DNA of 64,000 nt. Source: Microbotryum violaceum. Taxonomy: Eukaryota. The notes under the pieces are model-generated. The model saw only the letters and a program-made list of their open reading frames with translations. It made no database searches and was not told where the DNA came from. How positions within the stretch are numbered: the first letter of the stretch is position 1; every line of letters begins with the position of its first letter. Positions 3,019 to 61,654 of this stretch are shown here, piece by piece. The DNA lies in the NCBI GenBank assembly GCA_001244265.2, contig CDLV01000004.1, positions 558,001 to 622,000 of the forward strand, in the 5' to 3' direction. The position numbers were made by a program, and so were the translations under genes.

Positions 3019-4225
3019 CTAAAGCTCAACAGACATCAATTTACCGTGAAAGACCCGTGCTACTATGTCGGGACGGTCGGATGCGGCTTGGCCAGGAAGC
3101 AAAGCGTTGACAATTTCCGACCAGGCAGGGTTGCATGTCATTGTGATGAATATGTCCGGAGCACCAAAAACACGAACGATGGCCATAGCATCTTGGTAAA
3201 GTTGGACCATTTGGCGTGGCGATCCGGTGTGTGACGACGGTAGGATGACTCTTTTGCCAATCTGCGCGGGAGCAAGTCCTTCAGCCAGGCTTGCTTGAAG
3301 GGACAAATACTCTTCGGCTCTGAGCTTTTTCTGATTTCTTCTCATCCAGTATAGCCGTTCTTGTTGAGTTACTGCCCAGGCGTCCGCGACAAATTTCTGG
3401 AACAAACGGCCCCCAAGGAACAACGTCGGGTAACTGATATTCGAAGGACAAATGTGGAAGTAGTACGCGTTGAATTGGCTCTGCGTCACACGTTTGGATC
3501 CGCCCTGTCCGGTTTGTGGGTTGGCGTTGGCGTTATCCGTTGTGCGTTGCAATACGCCGTTTTCGTCTCGCATGCGACGAACTGCCGCTGTTGCAATAGC
3601 GTTTTTGCTGAGGGGAATTCTGTTGTGGTACCAGTCTTTGCCATACGGTAACAATAGTGGGTATGTGAGTGCCATGAGTGCAGGGTGACCATCATGAATG
3701 AGCTGAATCCCGCTGCTGTCATTGTTTGGCGGGTGACGTAACCAAACGACGATCTCTCTTCTTGAAGATCGGTACTCGGTGTCGTCTCCGGGTAGTATGA
3801 CGGCCACCTCCTCTTGCGTCGGCAAGTTGTACGTTCTCGGGTCTCGATTGCGCGGGGCAAGTAAGCGCAGCTGGTACATGTGAGACGCTTCACTGTCCAT
3901 GAATTATTTTGCCGTTAGGAACAGTTTGACGCGCCTGTTGTGGAGTCGCAGCATGCCGTCGAATACAGGAACAATTTGCTGATACGCCGAGTCCAGACGT
4001 CGAACTTCTTCAGGCGGTCCGTTGAATCTATGTCGGGCTTCGATGCGTTCAGTCGGAGCCGCTGATGATGCCATGGCCCTTGCTCGTGCCGAATGATGCC
4101 ATAGCAAAGCTTTCGTTGAATGCAAGAATGCGGTCCCGAAAGATCTTCTCAACTGTTTCACAGATAATCAGCAAGGCCGTTAGTCCGCTGTACTCGTTCT
4201 AGCAAGTTGAACGAATCGACATGTA
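3019..4225 (-). mobile_element. Helitron Rep/helicase gene fragment (Helitron 1, 3' part, truncated)
   Basis: Motifs YNLPT.EEVAVI, YPLL.PYG, GGRLFQ.FVAD and ILPSSHTGSPRQMVQLYQDAMAIVRVFGAPDIFITMTCNPAW..I...DRPDIVARVF match the Helitron-like N-terminal Rep region. Confidence 0.9.
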
Positions 4226-4230
4226 CTAAC

Positions 4231-4575
4231 TATTGTCAAAATGTTCTCATGTGGTAACTGATGAAGACCACGACTCAGTCCAATGGAACGGGACGAGAAC
4301 AGAGTAAGTAGGATTCCAGAGAATGCATACCTGATGAAGACCACGACTCAGTCCAATGGAACGGGACGAGAACAGAGTGGCCAAAGGCTAAGGGACAAAC
4401 TCCAGAAGGACTAGGAAGGGATGATAAGCGGAGATAATAAAGAGCTAATAGTGACTAAAAAAGGGTAAGACAAATGAGGTGCTGAAGGGCTTCATGAAGT
4501 CGCTAGAGGCTCAAGATGAAGTACCATAACAGGTACTATACGTAGACTGAAGGACGATGCAACCATATAATGACA
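4231..4575 (-). repeat. 3' LTR of Copia A (5'-TGTCA...ACAATA-3')
   Basis: Identical by eye to 5972..6116 + 11087..11286. Contains a 48-bp internal direct repeat (4258-4305 / 4331-4378). Confidence 0.92.
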
Positions 4576-4854
4576 CTCCCCCGGTTGGAAGGTCCGAAGA
4601 TGGAGTAAACGGTACATGGTCGAAGACTTTTGACGAGATCGGGTAAAGCCGAAAGCGACGGGACTTGTTCGGGTAAAAGGGGCCGAAGACGGGTGGCGGT
4701 ATGACGGACAATGACGCCATAAAACGGGATGGAGAACTGATCTGAAAGGGACCAGTATAACCAAATGCGGGGACGGAAGCCAACAAACCAGAGTACGCTG
4801 GTGGACTAGTTGGCACTACTTGGACTTGGAGCGAAGGGCTGGTGTACGAAGCCA

Positions 4855-5967
4855 TCATGTTCGCAGACGGGGACGGTGATTGGCAAGAATACCAATACGA
4901 CTTGACGGTTGATCGGGCTGATGAAGAGACACCGATACGAAACTTGGATGGGTGATCGGCTTGAAGAAGACCGATACGACGAGGACTTGTGAGGATGAGG
5001 ACTTGTGACGATTAAAGCGAGTGACAGAAAGCGCTGTTAACAAACATAGCTTTGGCTGCTTCCTCCTTGACTGCTTGCGCTTTCTTGAGGGAAGGGCAAC
5101 CAGCCCACTTGGAACTATGCCCCATAACGTTGCAACTCTTGCAGTGAACCTTGGAGTGATCGTGACTTTGCGCGGACATAGCCAGCGCAGATTCAATCCC
5201 CCGTAAGCGTGGCGCTCGGCTCCATGAGTAGTAGAAGACGAGGCCATTTTGCGATCAACTTGAGCGTAGAGGACAGCAATGAACGAATCAATGTCTGTAG
5301 CGAGGGTGAGGTTGGTAGTAAGGCTACTTGCAATACTTTCCCATTCGGGCGGAAGCGAATGGACGAGTAGAGCGGCTTGCGCAAAACCAGGCAGTGGAAC
5401 ACCCATAGTGGAGATTTCCTCAACGGCGTTTAGGAAGTTGGAAACAAACGACTTGAAATTGGACGTGTTGGAACGCGTGAACGTGCTCCGGAAGATGACG
5501 GGGATGAGCTGGATGAAGCGAGCTTCAGCGCCTTTGGTGTGGTGAATCCGTAGGGCGGTCCACATCTCATGGGCTGAAACACAATTCTTGATAATCTTCA
5601 TTTGAGAACCGGTAATTGTGTTGTTGATCAACTCAGCAGCTTTGTCATCCTTGGCTTCAAGATCAAGGGTGTAGATGTCGACAAGTCCTTGCTGAGCAGA
5701 GGTGAGCGCGCGAGGCGCGGCGGGTGAAATCTTTGCGCCTGCGGAGGTTGCTTGCGAAGTGGACGGGGTGACAAGGGCGGCCTCATAGATCGCTAGCAGG
5801 GCAGGAATGCCCACAGTTGTGACATCCAAACATTTCTTGCGACGAAGATAGTTGCTGATCCAGACGGACCATTCTTCGTACGAGTTCGGATTGTCGCTAA
5901 GGTGGATCCTAGAGATGAGGGCGGAAGACGAAGGCTCGAGAGCAGCTTGGTAGCTCGTTGGGCTCAT
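4855..5967 (-). CDS. gag: Copia-type Gag of element A (frameshifted near the zinc knuckle)
   Basis: NSYEEWS..ISNYL, SAHEMW.AL..HH and LVHSLPPEWES motifs. A CKSCNVMGHSSKWAGC knuckle is present in an alternative frame near 5095-5145. No pol follows. Confidence 0.8.
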   Translation of the reverse strand: MSPTSYQAALEPSSSALISRIHLSDNPNSYEEWSVWISNYLRRKKCLDVTTVGIPALLAIYEAALVTPSTSQATSAGAKISPAAPRALTSAQQGLVDIYTLDLEAKDDKAAELINNTITGSQMKIIKNCVSAHEMWTALRIHHTKGAEARFIQLIPVIFRSTFTRSNTSNFKSFVSNFLNAVEEISTMGVPLPGFAQAALLVHSLPPEWESIASSLTTNLTLATDIDSFIAVLYAQVDRKMASSSTTHGAERHAYGGLNLRWLCPRKVTITPRFTARVATLWGIVPSGLVALPSRKRKQSRRKQPKLCLLTALSVTRFNRHKSSSSQVLVVSVFFKPITHPSFVSVSLHQPDQPSSRIGILANHRPRLRT

Positions 5968-6116
5968 AACCTATTGTCAAAATGTTCTCATGTGGTAACT
6001 GATGAAGACCACGACTCAGTCCAATGGAACGGGACGAGAACAGAGTAAGTAGGATTCCAGAGAATGCATACCTGATGAAGACCACGACTCAGTCCAATGG
6101 AACGGGACGAGAACAG

Positions 6117-9100
6117 AATAAAAGACTGACGAGCGTGTAATCCAACCCTCAGTTAATTGCATATGATAGTACCGTAGTGCTAGATGTACGTACCTGACGA
6201 GCGTGTAATCCAACCGTGGAGAGAAGACAACGGTTGGTGCGCATCGCCAGGCTTCACTAAACAAACGCGCGCTTCTAATCAAATAACCGAAAGCCGCCTT
6301 CCTGCTAATCCTCATTCACAACACGCCAACTCGCCCCTTCACGCGATGAATCTATAAGCCCCATCGCGTGTACAAACTGATAGTGCTTCTGTGTCCCGAG
6401 CCCCTTGGTGAGGACGTCCGCAGCCATGGTGCCCGTGGGCACCCAGACCATCTCGATCGTGCCTTCCGCGATGTGGTCCCGGATGAAGTGAAAGTGGATG
6501 CCAATATGTTTGGTACGAGCATGGAAAGCCGGGTGCTTGGCCAGAGTGATGGCGGACTGGTTGTCACCCCGCAAACGAGTCGGAGCGGTCTGCTCGAAGC
6601 CAAGATCCGCAAGCAAACGACGTAACCAAATCCCCTCGCGAGCGGCGTATGACATGGCCACATACTCGGCCTCGGTACTGGAGAGGGTGACGAGAGTCTG
6701 TCGCTTGGCGACCCAAGAGATAGCCCCACCAGCGCACATGAACACGTAGCCCGAGACGCTCCGGCGAGTGACCGGGTCGGCGCCATGATCAGCATCGACG
6801 AATCCCTCCAAGATTGCCGACATAGGCTGGAAGGACTTCTGATAGCGGATGCCAAAATTGCGGGTACCGACAAGGTAGCGCAGGATGTGTTTGAGCGCCT
6901 CCAATGCTCCGCCGTGAAGTCGTTGCAGAAACGAGCAGCCTTTGAAACGGCGAACGCGATGTCGGGTCGGGTGGTGCCAGAGAGGTATAAGAGCTTGCCT
7001 ACAATGGCGCGATAGGGGATCGAGGCAGGATCAAAACCGGAGTCAGCGCGATTCCTCAGAGTCGACGGAGCCGCGAGAGGCGTGGGGCGGGGGAGGCATT
7101 GGCCATGTGGTGTTCCTCGAGGATGGCATCGACGAAATGGCCCTGGTTGACAATCGCAGCACCCGTCTTGCCCTCACGACGGATGCTCTGGCCGAGGAAG
7201 AAGGAAGCCTCGTCGGTGCTGCGAGCTTCGAACCGAGCCTTGAGCTGACAGAGCACGCCGTCGAGATCCCCGTCACCCGTGAGCAGACCGTCGTCGACAT
7301 GAATGGAGAGGAAAGACCGTCGATCCCCCTCTTTGCGAACGAAAACGGCATGGTCACTGTCGGTGCGGGTGAAGCCAATGGACAGGATCCATTCAGTGAA
7401 GACCTTGTACCACTCGCGGCCCGCCTGAACGAGGCCGTAGAGAGCGCGCTGCAAGCGCACGATATCGCCTCCGGGTAGTCGCATGTAGATCTCGGTCCCG
7501 CCGAGGTTACCGTTGAGGTACGCAGACGAGACGTCGAACTGGCGGGTCTCCCACTCGTTCTCGACGGCGAGGGCGAGTAACAGTCGATGAGAGGCGGCTC
7601 GACCTGTGGGCGAGAACGAATTGATGTGCACCCCCCGACGTCTTTGCATGTCCCGCGCGCAACAAGTCGAGCTTTGTACTTGACAATTTGACCCTCCGCA
7701 TTGCGCTTGACGAGGAGCACCCACATGCTCCCGATGACAATGGCCCCGGCGGGGGTCGAACCGGCTTGGAGAACGCGTTCTTAGCGGCGAGAGCTCCCTC
7801 CTCCACCGACATGGCGGCCAGCCAGTAATCACGAAAGGGGCCAGCGAGGGCGGCCTGGACCGAAGGAGTGTCATCGCTGTCGATCTTGGCGAGGAGCGCA
7901 GAGACTTCCTCAAACGAGTACATCTGCGTGTCAGGGTCACCTTCGTCGAAGTCATCGAACTGGATGGCTGCGTGGTCGACAAACTCCCAATGCTGTGCCG
8001 CGTGAGCAAATCCGAGGTAGTCAGGCGGACGGCGGGTCCGGGTGGAGCGATCACCATCGGGCGGTGCGTTTGCCGGGCCAGGGTTCGAAAATGCGAGGGC
8101 GGGCGGAACGGGTGGCGGAGCGGCGGCAGCGGGAGCCACGGCCGGCGCTTCGGCGACAGGGGCGCAGCGGCGGAACCGATGCCGAGCGGCGCGGGCGGGT
8201 AAGACAAACCGACCGCAACAGGGATGGCAGGCATGGCAGGGCTCACCGCAGGGGGAAGAAACGGTCCTCAAAGAACCTGGCCTGAGACGACTCAAAGACC
8301 TTGTTGCGAACCGGATCGAAGAAGCGCCAGGCCTTGGATCGCGAGGAGTAGCCAACAAAGTAGCAGAGGCGGGATCGCGGGCCAGCTTGTTGGGACGTTG
8401 CTCGGGGCGAGCGGCACGTGAGCGGCACAGCCCCAGGTCTTGACACGGTCGAGGCGGGGGCGGCGGGTGTCCGTGACCGGGTCCGAGGGTTCGTGCAGCA
8501 CAGAGTCTGGGGTGCGCTGCTGGAGCGGCGACGAGGGGAGCAGATTTATGACGTAGATTGCGGCGTGCGCCGCTTCATCCCAAAGTGCGGGAGGCAGTCC
8601 CGAGCGATGGAGCCAGGCGCGAACGGAGTTGAAGATCGTTCGCCAGCTGCGTTCCTGAACGCCCATCTGGCCGTGCTCGTACGCTGTGGAGAGCTCGTGG
8701 AAAATGCCCCGCGCGGCGAGCCAATCCCGGAGCCTGTGGTTCACAAACTCGCCCCCTCTGTCCGTGCGCAGCGTCGTGACGCCCTGGCCCCCATACTGGG
8801 TCTTCGACATCGCAACAAAATCCTGAAGGACGGCTGACGAGTCACTCTTGAGCCGGATGCTGCTAGCCCAGCGGAAGCGCGAAAACTCGTCCGTGATGCC
8901 GCAGAGGTAACGAGCACCCGAAAGTGCGGGCACAGGGGAAGGACCCCACACGTCGGCAAAGACACGGGAGAAAGGTGCGTCCGCGGGGTGGCTCGCGGGT
9001 TCCCGGTTCGGGGAAGAGACGGTTTTGCCGGCGCAACAAGCATCGCACTGATCGAGGAGGCGAATCTGATCCGGAGTTACAGCTGCTACATCGAGTGGAA

Positions 9101-11081
9101 TTTGACCCGACCTAACAAGCTCTACCAAACGACCCCAAGAAGGATGACCCAAGCGCTGATGCCAAAGCACTACGTCTGTAGGCAAGGTGGTGGCAGTCAG
9201 CGCCAGGTGATCCGCCCGAGGAGGTGGGTGAGAACTTGCCTGAAGCACGTAGTGGTTGCGATCGAGGGCGAAGGAAAGGCGGGAGGTCGCGCTCGAGATC
9301 GCGATCCCGGTGTGTTTCCCAGCCGCGTCGCACTCGTTGGATAGCTCATACCCGTCCTTCATCAGGCCGGCGAGTGAGACGAGTTCAGCGGACAGACCGG
9401 GGACGAGGAGGACGTCATGGAGCTCGATGGACGCTTCGTCGACACCGAACCGGAGAGTGCCCGTACCGGTCGCCATGGCACTGGAGTTGAAGGCGCCGAC
9501 GACCCGGACGCGCTCCGTGGTGAAGGGCTTGAAGTCGATGAGGAGGTCCCGGCGAGTCGTCATGTGGCGGGTCGCACCCGAATCAAGCAAGTAGCGCGGG
9601 ATGTCGCTCAGGTACAGCGCCGTGTCGTCGTCACCAATGGGTACGCCGACGACCAAGTATCCCTCGTAGGCCTCGTCCTCGAGCTGAGCCTCGGGTGCAC
9701 GGTCGACGGCGACGAGCGCCATTACGTCGGCCGCGCCAATGGTGATGTTGTGCTTGGCGAGAACAGCGATGCGGCGGCGAGAGACCTCTGCCGACGGCAC
9801 CGTGCATTCGTCGCCAAGATGTCCCTGCTCGTAGCACCTTCTGCACTGCATCCGACCCAGTTTCAGGCGACCAGCGTGCGAGATCCCGTGAGGCCACCTC
9901 TCCTTGAGGCCGGGCACCCTCGAGGCCTGAAGGAAGGGGGCGCCGAGGGACCGGAAGGACGGCCCGAGGGTTTCGAGCGAGGACGACCCGAGGCTGGCTG
10001 ACTCCGAGACTGCACCCGTGCCGCTAATGCCTCCGCGATGGGCTCGATCTGCCGGCTCGAGGAAAGTGCGGCCCTACGTATCGCGCCCTCAACTTGCTCG
10101 AGCGATGGGAGCGTGCCGATGGAGTCGATGACCGTCACGAGGTTCCTCGGCATCCTAGCCTTCAAGAGGTCCATGCGAACGCCCTCGGACAGCGCTGGCG
10201 CTGGTACCCACTTGTCGAAATCGCTCTGGGTAAACGATGTGCCGTCGATCCTGGCGCGTTGATAGGCTTTGTCACGGGAGACGTGGGCGGCGACGAGGTC
10301 CTCAAACAACCGGTTGAAGTTCGCAAGCCATGGGTCTAGCGCTTCGCCGTCGACAAATGGCTCACACAAGAAGAGGGCGTCGAGCTTCGCTGAGCGCATG
10401 AAATCGTCCGAAGCGCGACCGAGATCCTTATCGAGCGCGGCCCACAAGTCGTGCGTGGCGTTGGCTTTGACGCGGGCGAAGGTGGACTCCCCCAAACATA
10501 CGATTAGCGTGTTGCGCGCCTGCGCAAGGGCCTGATCGAGAGCGTCGACATCCTGACGGTACAATCGAAGTTGGTTGCGATAGGTGGCCACATCGTCTAC
10601 CCGGTTGTCGCCCTCCAAGCGAGTGAACTCGGACTGCAAAGGCTCGGGGCCGACGTCTAGAACACCGGTGACGTGCTTGAGGCGGCCCTCGCCTTTCAGG
10701 ACGTTCTGAAGTCGCTCCCTGGCAACACCCCAGTTGGTGGCGTCGACTTTGTCGTATAGGTCGCCCATCAGACTGACGTGGTCAGCCGTGGGAGTCGCCA
10801 TCTTGGATATGCGCTGCGTCTTTTCTGCGTGCGGATCTGTGCCTTGCGGCAATACAGACGCTACCAAATAAAAGACTGACGAGCGTGTAATCCAACCCTC
10901 AGTTAATTGCATATGATAGTACCGTAGTGCTAGATGTACGTACCTGACGAGCGTGTAATCCAACCGTGGAGAGAAGACAACGGTTGGTGCGCATCGCCAG
11001 GCTTCACTAAACAAACGCGCGCTTCTAATCAAATAACCGAAAGCCGCCTTCCTGCTAATCCTCATTCACAACACGCCAACT
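6117..11081 (-). mobile_element. Full-length Ty1/Copia retrotransposon B nested in the 5' LTR of A
   Basis: 215-bp LTRs at 6117..6331 and 10867..11081, identical by eye. TSD AACAG at 6112-6116 and 11082-11086. PBS TGGTAGCGTC at 10857-10866 and PPT at 6332-6340. Domain order is gag-PR-IN-RT-RH. Confidence 0.95.
6305..10801 (-). CDS. Copia B gag-pol polyprotein, broken into several frames
   Basis: [14 protein letters not shown] knuckle; protease [20 protein letters not shown] integrase zinc finger; LRTDRGGEF integrase core; RT motifs [18 protein letters not shown] and IHVDD; RNase H motifs GFVDAD, SSTEAEY, DNQSA and ADVLTKGL. Likely start MATPTADH at 10801. Confidence 0.88.
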
Positions 11082-11291
11082 AACAGAGTGGCCAAAGGCT
11101 AAGGGACAAACTCCAGAAGGACTAGGAAGGGATGATAAGCGGAGATAATAAAGAGCTAATAGTGACTAAAAAAGGGTAAGACAAATGAGGTGCTGAAGGG
11201 CTTCATGAAGTCGCTAGAGGCTCAAGATGAAGTACCATAACAGGTACTATACGTAGACTGAAGGACGATGCAACCATATAATGACACTAAC

Positions 11292-11720
11292 CTGGGCCAT
11301 CGCCAGTCAGGAGCTCGAGCAGCTCGGGCGGGGCTTTTCGATCCCGGGCAATCGAACTTTGCCATCCGCGCAACAGATTTTGAACGGTGTGGCGCCGCCT
11401 GGGCCTGGGTCGGTAATTTTTTGAACTCCCAGTGTAGATGCGCCTCTGCTCTCAGTGAAGGTTGTCGTACAGGAGACGATGATGTCATTTCGGCAGTGGC
11501 AGGTGTTGTTGGCGACGGCGTCATTAAAGTGGGAGGGGTTGGGTGGAGGAGGACACAAGCAGCATCACTGGCGGCGCGTTCAGCCCTGCTCAGCCTCGCT
11601 GCGGCGCGCTCAGCTCGCTCACGTTGCCAACGCCTCTGGTAAAATCTTGCAGTTGACTTTTCGGCAGTGGCAGGAACTGGATGATTGAAGAAACTATATG
11701 CTACGATGTGGTAGAAATGC
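11292..11720 (-). mobile_element. Helitron 1, 5' part (continues 3019..4225 across the Copia A insertion)
   Basis: FKICCADGKVRLP motif (Helitron CCxxGKV.LP) lies immediately outside the CTAAC TSD. Confidence 0.75.
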
Positions 11721-12553
11721 AAAAACAGGTCATCTCAGTCTGCTTTGGGAAGCAGGGAGTCATGTACATGCGCCAGGCTGCTTTGATTGACAATGGAACC
11801 TCGGCGAATGTGGGCGAAACGGCCCGTGGCTGGGCGGACCCATTCTGAAACAGCGCTAGCTAATTGGGACGCAGTGGCCCAAGAGCCATTGCAGTCTACA
11901 TGTAATTTTTTATTTTTTTTTGTAGAACTTGTTCATCATATTGCCCCCAATTCCTGTTCCCCCTGATTGGCCTACGGAAAAACCAGATGGAAGTCGACGA
12001 TGATAACACAAACCGCCCGCAAGATGCGAGAAACGGGCCGGTGTTCACCAATCTGATACTTGGGATTCAAGTGCCCCAGCCAAGCGGTTGCTCCCTCCCA
12101 GGAGACGAATAAGAGAGAGAAAGAGAAAGGAGTAATAAAACAATTTACTAAGCGACAAGAGGCCCACCCCGCCGTCACTTCCCAACTTGTCAAGACAAAG
12201 ACAGGAGATCGACTGCGCAACTACCCTGACCTGCAAAGTCCTAAGTCTATGCTCGGTCACAACAAGATGCGGTGGAGGCCCCTCAAAACCTCCACCTCAG
12301 CAGTCCCTGGCCCTCAAAGCCGACTTTCTGCCTGTGTCCGCTGATCCCTCCCTTGACTCAGAACCCCGAAGCCAAAGAGCGCGAGTCACCGTCGAGTCAA
12401 TCTCAAATCGCGAGCCGGTCCATGAGCAACGAAGGCAGACCTGTAATAGATGAAAGATGAAAGCAAGATATTTAGTATACAGTGTTTTGTTGGAAGATGA
12501 AGCGTGATGGTGTGTGTGTGTGGGGTGTGGTGGGGGGAAATCGAACCCAGCCT

Positions 12554-15500
12554 CTACTGCCCTTGCCCGCCCCTTGCTCCTCCCGCCCTCAACTTCATCC
12601 TCTCCTCCAGTACCACCCTCCTCCTCTCCACGCTTTCCATCCTCGTCCCGTGCTTCTGCATCCTCCATCTCCCACTGCTGATCATCTCCAAAACCATCCC
12701 CGTGAAGATCTCGATCGTCCAGCCCACCCCTTCCTGTTTGCTGAGCTTGGCCTTGAGCTTGGGGAGGCCAAAGAGACGTTGCAGTGTCGTGTACTGGGCG
12801 TCCTCGATCGTGTCGCACCCGAGTGCGTCGCAGAGCACGCTCCTTGCTGCGATCCAGATGTTCCGCAAGTCAACGCAGCCAAAAAAGTAGCGGTCGGTGT
12901 TGTCCACCGGCGCTTCACAGACGAGGCACGCGGGAGAAGTGTCGTGCTTTTGTTGATGTTGCAGCTTGTGCATCGGGGTGAAGCGGAGAATCAGCTTGAA
13001 ACAAACTTCCCTCTCCCTCGCCGTCAGTGCCTTCGAGTTGACCGCCTTCCAAAAGCTCCTGAGGTCGTCCGGCTGCGGTGGTCCCTTGAGCCCGAGTGTG
13101 TTGGTAAAGGCCTTCGCGTGCAGGACCAGGCGCATGCGACGGATGGTGTACGGTCAAGCCATGTTCAGCAGCTTGTACTGGCTCGCCTGCTGTGGAAGCA
13201 CCGGGTCCGGAAGGCGCTGCTCCATTGCGAAGCGGGCCACGGGCTTGGGGAGAATTGCCTCGAGCGGTGCGCTGGTGCCGATCCGGGGGGCACGTTGAGC
13301 CGTCCCGCCGCCACCGCCACCGCCAAGGGCGTGTTCTTGTGTCGATCGACAGTGAACCGGTGCCAGGCCGCGATTGCCAGTCGATGCAGGAGCCCGCATC
13401 GATTGTACTCGCTGTTGTCGCCGAGCACATCCGCCGGCGGCGTCCAAAGGTGAAACCCCCACCCGCATACAACTTGCGCCGGTAGAGATCCGCCACCTTC
13501 GGGTAGCCTTGGAGACGAAGGTAGTCAAGTATATGAACCGCGTCGATGGTCTGTCTCCCTCTGATGGGGGTGTGGAGGCTGCCGAGCAAGGTGGGAAGCG
13601 CGAGCAGGTTCGCGGTGGTCAAGGTCCTCGGTTGACCTGCGCGTCTTGCTGTTTCGGAACCCCAATGCTGCTCGCCATCAGGGATGGAGGTCGCTGGGGA
13701 TGGGAGTGGATGGATGTGGCCAGAGATTGGTGGCCAGGTCAAGGTCCGACTGAGCTTGCTGGAGTGCCGCGCGCACAAGTCCTTGCCAGATCGCGCCCAA
13801 ACCGCCAAGAAGAACGTCCCAGATCCGTGCCGCAACCGCGTCCACAACGTCCTGCATCCTGATCACCCGAGTCCCCACTTGAGCTTGGCTGTGAACACGA
13901 TATCTCTGCCGTAGCTGGTCCTGCCCTTGCCCCACGGACGAAATCGACGAGCATGTCATCGAGCTTCTTGACGACTTTGGGCGGCGGGATGTTGGCTGCA
14001 AGGAAGTGCAGGATCTTGGGGATGGTGTACCAATTGACGTAAAAGGCACGGGTGTGGTGTGTGAGCCAGCGATGCTGAACCCCTTCCAGCGTCGCCTCGA
14101 GGCGTTCGATGAGATTTGCGTAGGCGAGTTTGGTGTTGCCGCTCGGGTCGAAGGGGAGGCCGATCCACTCGAGCAACTTGCCTGCGGCCTTGACGACGAG
14201 CGGGCATTGCCCCGGGTCCCAGCGGCATCCGATCGGTAGGACAACTGTCTTGTCCGTGTTGAGCTGGCCATTCGTTGCATGCCTCCAGTCGAGCGCCAGG
14301 TCATTGAGCAAGTTGAGTGACTCCAAGCCCGCGACGGCGACGACAACGTCATTGGCAAAAGCAAGTGATGTAATGGTGCGGCTCTGTGGGTACGGATGAA
14401 GTGCAGGTATGGACAGATTCAGCGCGATGTTTCGACAGTGTAGAGCATCCAGAAACGGCTGAAACATGATGTCCCAGACCGACGACGACGCCGGGTCCCC
14501 TTGGCCAAGCCCACACGTCAGTTGCACCGGCGCCGTTAGGAACCCATTGATGATGTAGCGGGCCAAGGTTGAGTCACCCGAGTAGAGCATCCTCAGCACG
14601 CGAAAAAAGGTGGCAGGAGCGCCCAGAGCGTCGAAGATGGCAAAGATCCAGTCATGCTCAACGAGGTCGTAGGCAGATGATTGGTCAAGAGACAAGAGCA
14701 CGGCCGCAGGGAACTCGATCCTGCGCGCGCCAACTTCCTCGATCAGGAGACAAAGGTGTAGTGCAGCGTCAGCCAATCGGCGGTCCTTGATGAATCCGTG
14801 CTGCTGCGGCCGGAGGAGATCGGGTAGAATTTGGTTCAAACGGGCGACATAGACCTTGGTAAAGCTCTTGTAATCGCACTCGCGCAGGGTGATTGGCCGG
14901 TACGACGAAAGTTCGGCGCAATCGGCATTCTTCTTGTGTCGCTTGAAGATGAGGCGCACGAGTTCTTGGCCCTGCTTGGGAGAGAGTGAGCCTCGCTCTA
15001 TCATCGCGTCGTAGGCCTTGGTCAGCACCTTGGCCCACGCCTTGGGTGCGGTCTGGTAGAGTTCGTAGGGCACGCCCGATGGTCCCGGCGATCGCCCCGG
15101 GTGTGTCGTCCCGATCGCGGCCACGACCTCGTCCTCGGTGATTGGTTGCTGGAGTAAGTCGATCTGCAATTCCGAGAGTCGGCGCAGAAAGAGAGGATCC
15201 GAGCGCGGGTTGTCGCAAGTCCGCGCCGCCCTGATCGGCGCGAGGAATTCGTCCCGAAGTCGGTCGACGCGGTCCGGGTCACGAGGCTTGATGTGGTAGA
15301 GGCGCTGGAAATGCGCCTGCGTGTGGTCAAGAGCGACATCAATGTCATGCTTTAGCTCTCTGTTGCTCAAGCGCAGTGCTGTGATCTTGGAGTCCGAGTT
15401 CCGCGCCGCAAGCTTGGCGTGGACCGGCCGCGACAGTCGTTCCTCGGAGGCGATCTCGGGGACGTGGGCTCGGATCCGGAGTAGGCGCGCGCGCTCCTCG

Positions 15501-16565
15501 ACCGCCCGCTTGAGTTCTTCGGATGTCCTTGTCCATTCTGCCGTTTCTGCCTCCCCCCATTCCGGTATCGCCTCCAGATCCTGCACCCTCCCACCAAATA
15601 CTCCATCCGTTCCGTCCGCTCCCAATGCAACCTCCTCGCCATCTCCCCACCCCTATCCCTGCACGCCTTCAGAATGACCTCGAGCTCCCCCACCGGTTCC
15701 TCCCGCTTGCCCCTTCCAGCCATCCTTCCATCATCCGCTGGAATTCCACCGTCTTAAAGGTTGTGGTGTTGATTCAATGTAGTTGGTTTGATGTGGTAGG
15801 TAGGCTGAGCTGTGGGAGGGTCGCATCAGGATCATCTGAAAGAGCCAGCACAATCAAGACCGGTCGGTGATTGGAAAGCTCCTTGGGATAGTCGTAGATC
15901 GTCGAGGCCTGGTCGAGTCTTTTTTGGTGTGTCCGTTGCAGGAGAAAGTAGTCAAGCCGGGAGAAGGAGTTGGTTCGCTTGCGATTGGGATTAGGTCGAG
16001 TGAAGGATGGGGTGATGGGGTGTTTGTAGCGGATGCAGTCCGTGTAGGCCGAGTCGAGCTTGCCGATCAGGATTGGCCAGTGGTGGCCGCGCCGACTTTG
16101 GTTCCGCCGATCGACTTCTGGGAGCGGGCAGTCATTGAGATCACCGCCAAGGAGTCGGAGGTGGGATTTCTGTGTTTTGTGAAATAAGAGTTTGTCAAAG
16201 AATTTCGCTCGTTGCTTTGGGTCAACGGGCGCATAAATGTTGTTGATTTCTAGAATTTTGATGTTGCCCCGCAGACGAAAGGATGTGACGAGGAGCCGGC
16301 CGTCGAGTGCCGAGTGGATGTGCAAGAGCTTGGCGTCGATCAGGGGGGAGTCAGCCGGAATTAGAGTCAGACAATGTTGGTTGATGAAGAACTTGCCCTT
16401 GTACTTGTCCTTGATGAGTTGCCAGAGGTGCGGTCTGATGATGTGCTCTTGTATGAGAATGGCTGATGCTTTGAAAAGGGATAGGTAGTTGTAAATGTCA
16501 TGTCGTTTCTCCGGGACCTCCATGCCCCTCCTCACGTTCCAGGTGATGATGGTGTACTTAATCAT
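12554..16565 (-). pseudogene. LINE-1 ORF2: AP endonuclease + reverse transcriptase + C-terminal zf-RVT-like region
   Basis: [47 protein letters not shown]; catalytic AFADD mutated to AFAND; C-terminal CLVC...YFF.C. Contains stops and frameshifts. Confidence 0.9.
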
Positions 16566-18828
16566 TAATGGGTAGTTGAGGTCGAAGCGCTCTTGGCGGT
16601 GGTGACGTCCTCAAAGAGGGGAGGGCGGGCAGGACATCGTCCTCGGGCTCGTGGTCGGACCATCTTTTCTCCTTGGCTACCCCTTTGCTTTCCCTCGGTC
16701 CACTTTCGTCACGCCAACCGGCATTGCCGCCGCCGCTGACATCGACCTCGTCACCCTCCGCCCCTCTGTTCCATCCTTGACAACAACGCGGCTCTTCCCT
16801 TTGATGATCACTCGCTTGGCGTCGGTTGGTTTCACTGAGGTCCGCCGCAGTCTGCGACCTCTTCATTACCGGCTTTTTGAACTTTGCAGCGGTCCCCCTG
16901 ATATTGATGGAACGTATCTCACCGTCCTCATCCCACGTGGAAAAGTTGTGACGCACCAAAGGGGGATTCAGCGTCGAGCCTCCTCTCGATGCTTTGGTCC
17001 CGCTCGAGTCGTGCCTGCTCAACCCAGTTAGCTCTGATCCTGTCCCACTCCTCCCCCTCGCGAAGCGACTTGGCAAGAGTTTAGGGTGACAAAGGTGGGG
17101 TTGGTTCGTGGGGTGTCGATTTGCGGGAAGCGGTGGCGGCAGTTGCTGTTGCGTCGCTGTCGTTGTCATGGTCCAGCCTGTTCGTCTCCCCTAAGTCCGT
17201 CGCTTCCGCGTTCTCCGCTTTCGTCGCTCCCCCTGCCTCGTCCACATTGTCCACCTCCGTCGCCGCCTCCTCTTCCTCCATCTCCGTCGCCACCTCCCTT
17301 TCCTCCATCTCCGTCGCCACCTTGCCTTCTGTTTCGCCCCTTCCATCCGCCATCACCTCATCCTCATCAATAACCTCTCCATCGGATCCTCCGCAGTCCT
17401 CTAAAACCAACTCGTCCTCGCTCTCAAGTTTGATGACCTCCGTTTTTGCGGTCGCCTCTGATTCCATCTCCGAGTCCTCCGAGTCCTCGTCATCCGCCTT
17501 ATCACCAGCGTCCTCCTCCCCCGATTCCTCTGGCCCCTGTCCGCTCTGGCCAGTTACCGCTTCCTCCTGTCCCTCCTCAACCTCGAGCCCGGCGAAGCGA
17601 TTCTATGATGCAATCCTGTTAACAACCGGCACAGGAATGGGGGCCTTGGCCTCCACGATGTTGGTGTCATTGGTGATGGTGTTCTTGTTGGCGTTGGTGT
17701 TGCCGTTGCCGTTGCCATTGTGAGCCTCCTTTCGCTTGCTCTCCTGATCCAGTCCGCAGTTCCCACGTGACCAACGAAGTGGCACCTACCGCAAGCCGCC
17801 TCCTTCTCATAGTCATAGCGAAGGGCGGTGACCGGGATGCCTCGAGTGGGAAGGCCGATTCTCGAAGGTAGGATCTCTTTCAAGGTCGTGTTAGGGCATT
17901 TGAACAGGGAGTCGTCATCAAAGTGTAGGAAAGCTGAGTAGTCTCCGGCAACGTGGGCAAAGGCCGAGGCGTTGTCCACGCTGATAATGCGCAGAACCTG
18001 CACAAGTTGGCACGAATGTCCCTTGCCTGACAAGTCCTGCACTAGTAATTGGAACGATTTGATGATGGCGTCCATGGAAGGCACTCCTTGAACACCGATG
18101 TTGATTCGAAGCTCGACCATGTTATGGTGGAACCTGTGAGATTTCGCGAAGCGGGCCTTCGCCGATCGCCAAGTGAGAGCAGGGGGCGTCGTAAGCGCAG
18201 CGTCACGTGCCTCGCCGGTGACGAACCCAACCGTAACGCGATGGTGAGCCGCCCCATTACGCAGGATTGATGAATGTTGTACGCCTAGGATCTGTGGTCG
18301 ATAGGCTGCAAGGTGGTCCAGCAGAGGAACTCCAGGCTCAAAGCAGATAGGAGAGATCGGCGATAACAGCCTCGTGACGCAGGCCACGAGATCGGTCTTG
18401 CCGGCATGAGACGCTCGCGAGGCGCTCTGGTGAGACAGAGTCACTTCAAGGGCGTAATCAAAGATGTTTTCGACAGACCGGTTCGCGTTTAAGGCCGAGA
18501 ATTTCAGCGATGTGGCGGTGGCGACGGGGTAGAGTTCGGCGAAGTAGATGGCCTGGACCCAACGATCCATGCGGTTTCCGGGTACAGCACCCATGGCTTG
18601 TAGGAGGCTGCCCAGAGGCTTGGCACGCTGTTGTTGTTGTTGCTGTTGTTCAGGTGACTGAGTCGCCTGACTCGCAGCGGCGGCATAGTTGGGTGCGGCG
18701 GTGGCGGGGCCCGTGACTTGCGTCTTCTTCGAGCTTATTGGGATCTGGTCGCGGGGTGGCTGGACGCTGGTGGCGGACACCGGTGGTGGCGGTGCCGGCG
18801 GTGGGGACCCAGGGTCTCCTGTAGACAT
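16558..18828 (-). pseudogene. LINE-1 ORF1 (gag-like, zinc knuckle, acidic C-terminal half), frameshifted
   Basis: Starts MSTGDPG; CGRCHFVGH knuckle; E/D-rich tract; homologous to ORF1 of LINE-3. Confidence 0.8.
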
Positions 18829-38305: not shown

Positions 38306-38949
38306 GGTTAATGGCCCTGGTCCGCCCCCTTCCTTGGCGTTGGGCTTGGACCAGGCTTCCCTTCCACAGCGGCTTGTATACATGTAAGGATATATCCTTA
38401 CACATGAGTTAAGGTCAATACACAACCAAATCTGTTCATCTTGATATTGTAACATCAACATATAACTATTTCTGAATGGTGTCTGCAAGGACTACATGAA
38501 AGCATGTTTATTGCAAGACTTGTAGTGATTCAAAATTCCTGTGTCCTTACCGCACCTCCCGTATCCTTACCGCACCCTCGTATCCTTACATGTGTCGACA
38601 TGTGTAAGGATACGCCCGCGCGCGCACGTGACATGCGTAAGGATACGCTCGCGCGCAAAGAGCACTGGCTGCTGCTGGTGAATAATTGACTCTTTCCGCA
38701 CACCAGTGGTTGTCAAAGTATCGCCATGCCCATTTTTGCACTAAGTTTAGTTATACATACTATTGCTGACCCCTATCATAGCCCCTACTGTACACTACAT
38801 TAGTGATTGACAAGGCCAAAACTTCACTGGACCACTGGGGCACAACTTTGTGAGTCAAACTTGCCATCAACATGAATGTTCCTCACTGTGATTTCCTCCA
38901 GGAGCACTGCACCGCTGGAAAACATTGTAAGAGGAGAGCATCGTCAGCT

Positions 38950-42423: not shown

Positions 42424-47089
<4,666 letters not shown>

Positions 47090-47912: not shown

Positions 47913-48989
47913 CGTTGTCCTTTCTTCACTATATGTTGGTAAATTCGCATGATCTTCACTGTTGACGAGCTTGTCATCCGTTGAATATGGTTCGGTGTTC
48001 GGACGTAGATTGCCGGAGATCCTGTCGGTAAGGATACGGGAGGTGCGGTAAGGACACAGAAATTTTGAATCACTACAAGTCTTGCAATACGCATGCTATC
48101 ATGTAGTCCTTGCAGACACCATTCAGAAATAGTTATATGTTGATGTTACAATATCAAGATAAACAGATTTGGTTGTGTATTGACCTTAACTCATGTGTAA
48201 GGATATATCCTTACATGTGTCGTGGCCGAAAATGCACAGGGGGCGAACCGCTTGGGAGAACCTTCTTGACCTGCCCGATTACAGTCGATTTTATGCGGAT
48301 GTCCGAGAGGGGCTTTTTACCGGTCGCAAGTGCGCCTCAGGATCTCCGACGCCACTCCCCGTGACTGTCCATGGGCACCCCGGGCGATTTGCACACACCA
48401 TCCTCCGTGAAGGTGATCTGTGTGCGCTTGTCTGCACCGTCGAGGCTCGCGCTTGGAGGGACAGGTCCTCCGGCAAATGCAGTGGCACGGGCGCCTAAAC
48501 TTCGTGCCCCTCAGGATTCGCGTGCACCGCCAGAACGACGTGAGTACTTCTTGAATACATATTTTGTGCATATTGCATGTGCCTGATGTGCGGCAGATGA
48601 CATGCCAAACCACGCCCCCGCCGACCGTCCAACTCAGTCCAAGCGGTTCATCGCCTCCCCTGTCAAGCGCTCGGCAATGGACGCCGAGCTGAATATTGAA
48701 TTATCGAGCACCGAAGGTCATGGTAGTGAGTTCAAGCCCGCAAATCGCAACACCTTTTGTACCGACTCACTACTGCCGGTTTCGGTTTCTTGCGCTTTAC
48801 AGTCACTGACAACTATCGCAGAAAACATGCGAGCGCGGAAGATAGACTTCTGATAAAAGAGAGGCAGCGACGCCGAGAAGTCAGGACCAGTCCACGAGCG
48901 GCACAAAGGCGGACGACGAACAAGATCGTCGTGATCGACGAGACAAGAGCAAGCGTCTTGTTGTAGTCGATCCCCAGTCGTGGAGCAAA

Positions 48990-53612: not shown

Positions 53613-55387
53613 GGTGACGACGGCGCTCTACGCAGAGGCGCAGGAGGGGACGACTGTATTCGGGGAGCGTGGGCGGGTGTTGACAAGGGTCAGGAATCGA
53701 GTGGCATCAGGTACATATGGGAGATATGGATGCAGAGAGGATGTCAAATGTACTCACAGTAGCAGGGCGTTGGATTTTCGTCGACGAAAATTCCGTCAAG
53801 TAGGCGTTGTGTCTGTTCGTGCCAGGTTGAGGAGTGGGGAGGAGACCCGGACGCGAGCGCCCCCGCGCGTGTTGAGCGATTCTCCAATTTGAGCAATTCA
53901 AAGCGTGACCGCCGGCGTGTGCCCCTAGTATAAAATCAGCACTGCAGTCTCCGGCCGCCAAACGGAGTCAAAGCCAAAATTTGTAACATCACGTTGGTAT
54001 TACAATATTTATGTCATTCGTCTGGAACGGAATCTACGTGTCCATAAATCTGCGGCCCCGCCGCCCCGCTCACTCTGCGCCGTCGGACTGGAGCCAGGTA
54101 TGTATGAATGAAATCACGTGCGCTTCAACCACGCAAGTGGCCGCAGGCGCGGTCATTTCACCGTAGGGAATAACCGGACCAATTCATCTCGAAGTTTGAT
54201 GGAGAAACCGAAGAGCTTGGGTCACTCCGTGGCGTATGTTTATTCCTGACTCGAGTGACCAAGTGTAATTTGCCAGCTCAGTCCACCTAGCTACTACTCG
54301 CAGGGCGGTCCGTTGGCAGCAACTGAGCACAACGCGCGGTGTGGGCTTCGAAAGATGCTTCCATTGGGAAAGAGAATGAAGTTCATGGCCAGCTTACTGC
54401 AGAACATGTGTCGGGCGAGAGCAATTCGCCATTTCGACCGGCTCTAACCCCTGACTGACACCCACCGATGGGAACAGTCCGAAGGTGCTTTCAATTCCCT
54501 GGGCCCCAAACGATCTCAGGGTTTCGTACCCGTAAGTGGTCACGCACCTTGACTTCCCATAATTCAGATGGGCGGGCATCACTATAAGCCTACCCGGGTT
54601 GATTGCATTCGTGGGTCATGTCGTGTTTCGGTGGGACGTCGCGCAAAATGTTTCGCGATGGGCCGCGGCGGTGCCAGACGCAAGAAGCAACCTCGAACAA
54701 AGGATTGGACGATAGGAAAGGACCTTTTTTTTTTTTTTGTAGAAAACGTTCATCATATTGCCCCCAGTTCCTGTTCCCCCTGTTTTGGCCTACGGAAAAA
54801 CTAGATGGAAGACTACGATGATAACACAAACCGCCCGCAAAAGTGCGAGAAACGAGCCAAGTCCACCAATCCGAGATTCGGATTCAAATGCCCTAGCCAA
54901 GCGGTTGCTCCCCCCCAGGAGACTAATGAGAGAGAAAGAGAGATGAAGAGAAAAAAAGAAAGAAAATAAATGTACTAACGACAGAAGGCCCACCCCACAG
55001 CCACTTCCCACTCGGTCGAGACGAAGACAAGAGCACGACTGCGCAACCACCACGACCCTCGACGCTCCAAGTCTCTGCTCAGTCACAACAAGACGCGGTG
55101 AAGGTCCCTCAACCCCCCCCCCCCCCCCCCATCGGCAGTCCCTGGACCCTCAAAGCCGACTTTCTGCCTGTGTCCGCTGATCCCTCCCTTGACTCAGAAC
55201 CCCGAAGCCGAAGAGCGCGAGCCACACCGAGTCGACGCCAAATCGCGAGATGGTCCATGATCCGCAACGGTGAACCTGTAACAAATGAAAGATGAAAGCG
55301 ATCTATTTAGTGTACAGTAGGAGAAAATGATGTCACGAGAATTTGGTGTGTGTGTGTGGTGGTGGGGGGGAAAGTCGAACCCAGCCT

Positions 55388-61654
<6,267 letters not shown>

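Follow-up and report, generated by a model that had tools for sequence, protein, structure and literature searches.

A retroelement that passes through spliced RNA should lose any intron on its sense strand, a rule on which retrotransposition reporters rest, so how could a Copia retrotransposon carry an intron inside its long terminal repeat (LTR) and keep it through transposition? The question is raised by Copia element B in a transposon-dense stretch of Microbotryum DNA (the whole 64 kb analysed here, below called the window), in which Pfam matches mark a Helitron, two LINE copies and three Copia families (A, B and C). One resident Copia polyprotein is 99% identical to M. silenes-dioicae proteins, and an Rfam search gave no family match within positions 4200–11320. 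Both LTRs of B contain, on the sense strand, a 22-nt leader exon block (E), a unique segment that begins with GTACGT (L), an exact second copy of the block (E') and the last few nucleotides of the LTR (u5), and the repeat-intron arrangement that an initial annotation of this DNA had described there was recovered to the base.

Element B has the general features of a Ty1/Copia (Pseudoviridae) retrotransposon, namely a pair of direct LTRs, a 5-bp target duplication, a primer binding site (PBS), a purine tract and the domain order gag, protease, integrase, RVT_2 and RNase H. The Pfam matches on its minus strand are, in order, Pol_BBD, gag_pre-integrs, rve and RVT_2, and its RNase H part aligns with element C. 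TGGTAGCG directly follows its 5' LTR and GAAGGGGCG precedes its 3' LTR; the LTRs do not have TG..CA termini. In the window sequence the reading frames of B are interrupted, and these breaks are most likely assembly gaps, since four sequencing runs (below) add single bases at at least 10 places. Features of B and of the neighboring element A are listed in Table 1.

Table 1. Positions in the window of the features of Copia elements B and A.
Feature	Position	Strand	Remarks
Element B, complete	6117..11081	minus	LTR, PBS, gag, protease, integrase, RT, RNase H, LTR
Target duplication of B	6112..6116 and 11082..11086		5 bp, CTGTT
5' LTR of B	10867..11081	minus	215 nt
E, 5' LTR of B	10944..10965	minus	22-nt leader exon block, ends CAG
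L, 5' LTR of B	10898..10943	minus	unique part of putative intron, 46 nt, donor GTACGT, branch-like TTAAC
E', 5' LTR of B	10876..10897	minus	exact copy of E, 3' end of putative intron
u5, 5' LTR of B	10867..10875	minus	final 9 nt of LTR, TCTTTTATT
PBS of B	10855..10866	minus	TGGTAGCGTCTG, abuts 5' LTR
gag start codon of B	10799..10801	minus
3' LTR of B	6117..6331	minus	215 nt, 100% identical to 5' LTR
E, 3' LTR of B	6194..6215	minus
L, 3' LTR of B	6148..6193	minus	GTACGT first, AACTGAG last
E', 3' LTR of B	6126..6147	minus	identical to E, ends CAG
u5, 3' LTR of B	6117..6125	minus	TCTTTTATT
3' LTR of A	4231..4575	minus	345 nt
E, 3' LTR of A	4331..4378	minus	48 nt
L, 3' LTR of A	4306..4330	minus	25 nt, GTATGC first
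E', 3' LTR of A	4258..4305	minus
u5, 3' LTR of A	4231..4257	minus	27 nt
gag-only ORF of A	4858..5970	minus	after PBS
PBS of A	5960..5971	minus	GGTTATGAGCCC
5' LTR of A, downstream part	5972..6116	minus
u5, 5' LTR of A	5972..5998	minus
E', 5' LTR of A	5999..6046	minus
L, 5' LTR of A	6047..6071	minus
E (part), 5' LTR of A	6072..6116	minus
5' LTR of A, remainder	11082..11286	minus

The 22-mer of B occurs four times in the repeat listing of the stretch, with a spacing of 68, and the proposed intron of B is L plus E', from 6193 to 6126 and from 10943 to 10876. The 68-nt length first given for it holds for the window sequence at both places, although all four sequencing runs have one additional G behind 6171, within L, so that the segment is 69 nt long in those genomes. 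Its ends are GTACGT and CAG, and the corresponding segment of A runs from GTATGC to CAG; the extended donor consensus of spliceosomal introns is near GTRNGT. The TTAAC of B lies 27 nt upstream of CAG and is at most branch-like, and a GAG stands 5 nt past it. On balance we consider it probable that this segment of B is itself an intron.

Element A has a gag-only interior and a GTTAG target duplication, and B is inserted into its 5' LTR, 8 nt into block E. The LTR of A has the same layout of E, L and E' as that of B, with a 48-nt block and a 25-nt L, and as had been claimed from the sequence the two LTRs are otherwise dissimilar (local alignment score 16, compared with 17.6 ± 2.3 for 200 shuffles) and are followed by different PBS types, read as GGTTATGAGCCC in A and TGGTAGCG in B, which putatively correspond to two parts of the initiator tRNA-Met. 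The gag proteins of A and C are only 22% identical. Two of the three Copia families in the window (A and B) thus have the layout, and element C is without it.

Could the 22-nt repeat be an ordinary partial duplication, of a regulatory site or by reverse-transcriptase slippage, with an incidental GT and AG and no splicing in B? Direct repeats are common in LTRs, and both copies are kept in all four sequencing runs, as such a duplication would have it. We nevertheless consider this very improbable. Non-array exact direct repeats of at least 14 nt with a period of 40–150 number few in the 64 kb (one 15-mer at 2722 and the repeats of LTR A and LTR B only), and in each of the two LTR repeats the sense strand reads AG|GTRNG precisely where the first copy ends, with none on the antisense strand. 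AGGTRNG occurs 55 times in 128,000 window positions (4.3e-4 per position), and the chance of meeting AG|GTRNG on the sense strand at some register is about 1% for a 22-nt and about 2% for a 48-nt repeat. Nine further elements are alike and none has the layout in antisense, as follows.

The polyprotein of element C was aligned with 19 homologues, metagenomes were then scanned, and exact direct repeats were listed in 80 of the 574 matching Copia loci. The layout is defined here by an E' that reproduces the leader exactly, from the first base through the last donor, ends in AG and stands 0–80 nt ahead of the PBS, and by GT after the first copy. Nine of these 80 loci (L007, L008, L013, L015, L022, L039, L044, L050 and L060) have this layout, always on the sense strand, as do B and A, and wherever a contig has two LTRs (L008, L039 and L050) both show it. 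Several of the metagenome contigs are circularly collapsed assemblies, which accounts for their order of LTR followed by PBS. The initial annotation had proposed scanning fungal Copia LTR libraries for direct repeats ending in AG whose first copy is followed by GTRNG. Among 376 distinct exact repeats (at least 12 nt, period 25–220) in the 80 loci, the sense strand has AG|GT precisely at the end of the first copy in 11, and in 19 if a shift of up to 3 nt is allowed, while the antisense control gave 0 of 376 both exactly and within 3 nt. Given the AGGT frequency measured, 11 or more would be expected with a probability of 1.2e-7. Four of the 19 are in a satellite array of L010, one is in L021 and 14 are in the nine loci. 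A chance origin of the LTR repeat layout is excluded, in agreement with the earlier argument that the recurrence of this design speaks for a general mechanism rather than a chance duplication.

The layout is unevenly distributed among Copia elements. In a reverse transcriptase (RT) tree its bearers make up 9 of the 20 rows outside a large 58-row clade and 1 of the 58 inside it, with long branches between them and two PBS types among them; among loci with a GGTTATGRGCCC-type PBS, 7 of 25 have the layout and 18 do not. A further 37 loci, collected independently from eukaryotic sequences that contaminate prokaryote assemblies, gave one weak candidate among 97 repeats (L089, 12 nt, period 34) and none in antisense, which indicates that the layout is confined to a subset of Copia lineages and is not shared by all Copia. 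These lineages are apparently fungal. A metagenome scan with the protease-integrase piece of B returned no relative, and viral contigs scanned with element C and with alignment A2 returned no match.

The elements with more than one leader exon bear most directly on splicing. B, A, L007, L022, L039 and L044 have the one-exon version of the plan, and L008, L013, L015, L050 and L060 have a two-exon version whose order is E1, I1, E2, L, E1', E2', u5. In the latter E1' and E2' adjoin, each matches its upstream partner bar single mismatches, and the I1 segment of about 50–60 nt is absent from the downstream copy. I1 begins with GT and ends with AG in all five elements (the donors are GTGTGT, GTTAGT, GTATGT, GTAAGC and GTAAGA), and its boundaries played no part in selecting them. 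Duplication of DNA cannot excise an intron and cDNA of a spliced RNA can, which argues that the leaders of these relatives were spliced and then copied into the LTR. The downstream E1-E2 copies are thus DNA-level evidence of splicing followed by reverse transcription in five relatives and lend strong indirect support to the intron reading; they also cannot have come from the plain DNA-level duplication considered above.

We compared the stretch with four sequencing runs, three guessed to be RNA (X15, X16 and X18) and one of DNA (X1). All four count as DNA, because they give contigs of flat depth and contigs that join flank, LTR and gag; one X16 contig covers the flank, the whole LTR and gag in unspliced form. 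None of the four contains a junction that skips 6126–6193, in contigs, which drop rare forms. One-copy forms of LTR A are present in X15 and X18, where loose ends at 6046 run into the sequence after the second copy, and the repeat makes an origin of these forms by splicing indistinguishable from one by recombination. No one-copy form of LTR B was found in the four runs.

Several regularities of the blocks suggest what the second copy might do. E and E' are exactly identical in B (22 of 22), A (48 of 48), L022, L039, L015, L008 and L060, and only L050 (its LTR pair 96.5% identical) and L013 show single mismatches between them. Between the sister elements L008 and L015, no more than 24 of 35 aligned columns agree in E1 and 13 of 17 in E2. 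Identity of E and E' within elements together with divergence of E between sisters implies that some process holds E' equal to E. E' begins exactly at the first base of E and ends exactly at a usable AG. A TATA-like motif lies 32–39 nt upstream of E in five of the seven metagenome elements that have upstream sequence, and E of the metagenome elements often opens within an initiator-like CTC|AGTC; this spacing and motif together suggest that transcription starts at the first base of E. No TATA-like motif was found upstream of E in A or B of the window. L starts with GT in every element with the layout, and its 3' end just upstream of E' is A/T-rich and AATAAA-like in the metagenome elements, while the L of A and B is not clearly A-rich at its 3' end. 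The putative intron (L plus E') is 48–79 nt long across elements, and E' lies 0–80 nt upstream of the PBS, within 0–30 nt in 8 of the 10 elements whose PBS can be read.

The initial annotation did not name the general mechanism for which it argued; the strand-transfer mechanism that we propose would operate as follows. The LTR would consist of promoter, E, L, E' and u5 in that order, with transcription starting at the first base of E (10965 in B). L plus E' would be removed as a spliceosomal intron whose donor follows E, whose branch point is in L and whose acceptor is the AG that ends E', and in the two-exon elements I1 would be spliced out as well. The spliced leader would then read E-u5-PBS, and because E' equals E it would be identical, letter for letter, to E'-u5-PBS of the DNA, so that a minus-strand strong-stop cDNA made on it could pair without gaps. 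This cDNA would pair with E' in the unspliced 3' LTR of an RNA, and synthesis would proceed through L, E and U3, so that the new LTR regains the intron; should the cDNA pair with the upstream E instead, the intron would be lost and a one-copy LTR would result, a form like those of LTR A in X15 and X18. E' would be rewritten from E in every cycle, which would explain their identity. The net effect would be that a spliced leader is gained and the intron is nevertheless kept through transposition. That leader splicing and landing of the strong-stop cDNA on E' rebuild an intron-bearing LTR in this way is a proposition for which we judge the chances about even. We are equally divided over its broader form, in which a widespread group of fungal Copia elements keeps a sense-strand intron by means of a copy of the leader, in its spliced form, that lies at the intron's 3' end and gives strong-stop cDNA from spliced RNA its R acceptor, so that each transposition would rebuild the intron and rewrite the copy from the exon.

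Two features of this strand-transfer model constrain it. One is a difficulty: in the two-exon elements I1 must escape splicing in the 3' LTR of RNAs that serve as template, and the model gives no explanation for this. The other concerns the 3' end of the RNA. With a u5 of 0–10 nt in B, L007, L008, L015 and L050, the model requires that the RNA of these elements end within E', at the LTR terminus or farther downstream.

If the intron is real, E' might instead be a passive relic, left behind when one ancestral aberrant strand transfer or template switch placed cDNA of a spliced leader in the LTR. One such event would account for the spliced-junction copy, the layout is missing from many relatives, and the rebuilding step set out above is a proposal of ours; we nonetheless think such a history unlikely. 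A relic would drift, yet E equals E' within elements while the sisters L008 and L015 have diverged in both exons as described above. The layout has also been kept across RT lineages on long branches and with two PBS types, and in every case E' begins at the first base of E and ends at a usable AG.

It is also conceivable that the intron is real and that only unspliced RNA replicates, with R extending from E as far as a poly(A) site within L; the A/T-rich ends of L could be poly(A) signals used ahead of E'. E' would then have another role, and it may give the spliced mRNA and the unspliced genomic RNA the same context at the PBS and the LTR end (an integrase site or contacts with the primer) or be a binding site, with which its position 0–30 nt from most of the readable PBSs agrees. 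We regard this arrangement as decidedly unlikely, since it does not account for the start of E' at the first base of E or for the copying of both exons in spliced form, and it offers no process by which E' would be held identical to E. Base pairing between E and the gag start of B, in the style of retroviral U5:AUG, was tried as a candidate role and rejected: its predicted energy of -19.2 kcal/mol is not significant, 18.5% of 1000 shuffles being as low.

What might an element gain by rebuilding a leader intron through strand transfer? One possible advantage is intron-dependent accumulation of its mRNA. According to the relevant passages of the two reports, mRNA accumulation requires introns in Cryptococcus (PMC3744415) and efficient reporter expression requires them in Armillaria (PMC4935854). 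Another possible advantage is that splicing would rid the 5' part of the RNA of any poly(A) signal that L carries. If the strand-transfer model is true, the layout is a new cis-acting device in the replication of LTR retroelements that preserves an intron, and it explains how such elements manage in hosts whose mRNA accumulation depends on introns; it would also be a signature, readable from DNA only, of splicing and of the transcription start. LTR annotation would be affected because these repeats resemble plain duplications, and dating would be affected if E' is rewritten in each cycle. Public RNA data and marked elements both offer direct tests of the idea.

How does this arrangement compare with known ways of gaining an intron? 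In the Rogers model an intron is gained by tandem duplication of an AGGT-containing segment, and splicing restores the one-copy sequence. The likeness is an intron bounded by repeats. That model duplicates a whole unit, however, whereas L of B is unique, without a duplicate in either the LTR or the window, and in the two-exon relatives the copy lacks an intron that is present in the original. An introner family, which would have many near-identical copies in unrelated genes, was considered and rejected, as the two LTRs are the only places in the 64-kb window where L of B occurs; in addition, the flanking repeat of 22–48 nt, which begins at the putative start site, argues against the short target duplication of an introner. 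A search for a source of L of B elsewhere in the window gave no match.

Among replication systems, the R region of retroviruses and LTR retrotransposons, present at the 5' end of the RNA and near its 3' end, guides the first template switch, and E and E' would act as such an R. The classical R is one block per LTR that extends from the transcription start, whereas here there are two blocks per LTR with the core of an intron between them, and splicing would bring the start-proximal copy into the place of the landing copy. In DIRS elements an internal complementary region holds an internal copy of a junction that is used to rebuild the element's ends. The likeness is that an internal copy serves to rebuild ends; DIRS elements differ in having a tyrosine recombinase, a circular intermediate and no splice junction.

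Splicing of Copia RNA by the host has been described for BARE and for an Arabidopsis Copia element, whose RNAs are spliced into a gag-only RNA (PMC3735527, PMC5580714). Those introns are in the coding region and not in the LTR, have no exon copy, and mark RNAs that are translated but not copied. A splicing-type reaction has been tied to the first strand transfer of a Copia-group element in the Ty1 lariat model, which (PMC1266399) proposes a 2'-5' branch in genomic RNA and not a conventional leader intron with a duplicated exon.

In the full-text literature searched (subscription journals lay outside its scope) we came across no LTR intron whose 3' end duplicates the leader exon, and the pertinent passages of PMC4469406, PMC3601003, PMC13148404, PMC8557442 and PMC5014426 contain none. 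The closest described case in those passages is the 5' UTR intron retained in the terminal repeat of Penelope-like elements: it is 75 bp long in Penelope, lies inside the pLTR and is retained after retrotransposition (PMC8557442, citing Arkhipova 2003), and the same source terms such intron retention "highly unusual among retroelements". By that account the likeness to the present layout is close, in that a short leader intron within a terminal repeat survives transposition. The corresponding passages of PMC8557442 attribute the retention to an unusual mechanism of these elements' own and make no mention of a leader-exon copy where the intron ends. Penelope-like elements differ from those described here in using another RT and a GIY-YIG nuclease, with no tRNA primer and no strong-stop transfer.

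Comparison of the window with four sequencing runs that behave as DNA (X1, X15, X16 and X18) showed single-base insertions relative to the window at no fewer than 12 places, present in all four runs except for one that was seen in X18 only, and 11 of the 12 insertion places listed lie within the complete Copia element B; the run differences listed for these four runs include no deletions relative to the window. Single bases are probably missing from the window assembly, so that the frameshifts of B are probably artefacts.

The second Copia element, A, whose 5' LTR is split by B (the insertion point is 8 nt into block E of that LTR), is about 2.1 kb long once the nested B is subtracted, and consists of a 1386-nt interior between 345-nt LTRs. 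Its interior ORF encodes gag only (Retrotran_gag_2), and A is probably a non-autonomous derivative. Other copies of LTR A in X1, X15 and X18 part from the window to the left of 5980, within the terminal 9 nt of this LTR, which suggests a sister family with a different LTR end. In one X18 contig the match to the window ends at the A primer-binding site (at 5972), and T-arm-like tRNA sequence then stands in place of the LTR. This contig could represent either a tRNA-Met gene or some odd copy, and in that case the half-tRNA reading of the A primer-binding site would gain support.

The third Copia family is represented by element C, which has an intact polyprotein ORF of 1389 aa, and whose LTRs, owing to indels, run past the reported 199 nt. 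The exon-copy layout, in which a segment starting with GT lies between a block E and its exact copy, is absent from element C. An inverted repeat encloses 9.5 kb that include this element; its two arms may be the termini of a DNA transposon or a pair of LTRs in inverted orientation. The two LINE-like copies in the window are 73–84% identical across several blocks.

Features of the window and places of extra bases in the runs
Feature	Position	Detail
Element A	4226-11291	includes nested B
Element B	6117-11081	minus strand
Extra bases in runs, within B	behind 6171, 6900, 7088, 7651, 7747, 8158, 8250, 8255, 8378, 8403, 9935	8255 in X18 only
Element C	42424-47009	
Inverted repeat	38380-38572 and 48026-48218	193 nt, 97% complementary
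LINE-like copies, two	12300-17000 and 55200-60000	RVT_1, Exo_endo_phos, zf-RVT
Helitron-like ORF	3022-3903	

Copia was also found in 37 contigs (L081-L117), some of them 0.6–2.8 Mb long, from assemblies labelled as bacteria or bacterial MAGs; the contigs appear to be eukaryotic contaminants or eukaryotic sequence assigned to the wrong bin. The long Copia leader of one metagenomic locus (L011, 1-260) is without an exon copy and has a GTAAGT...CTAG segment ahead of the primer-binding site; this segment may represent a different kind of leader intron. The polyprotein of element C is 99% identical to Microbotryum silenes-dioicae proteins.
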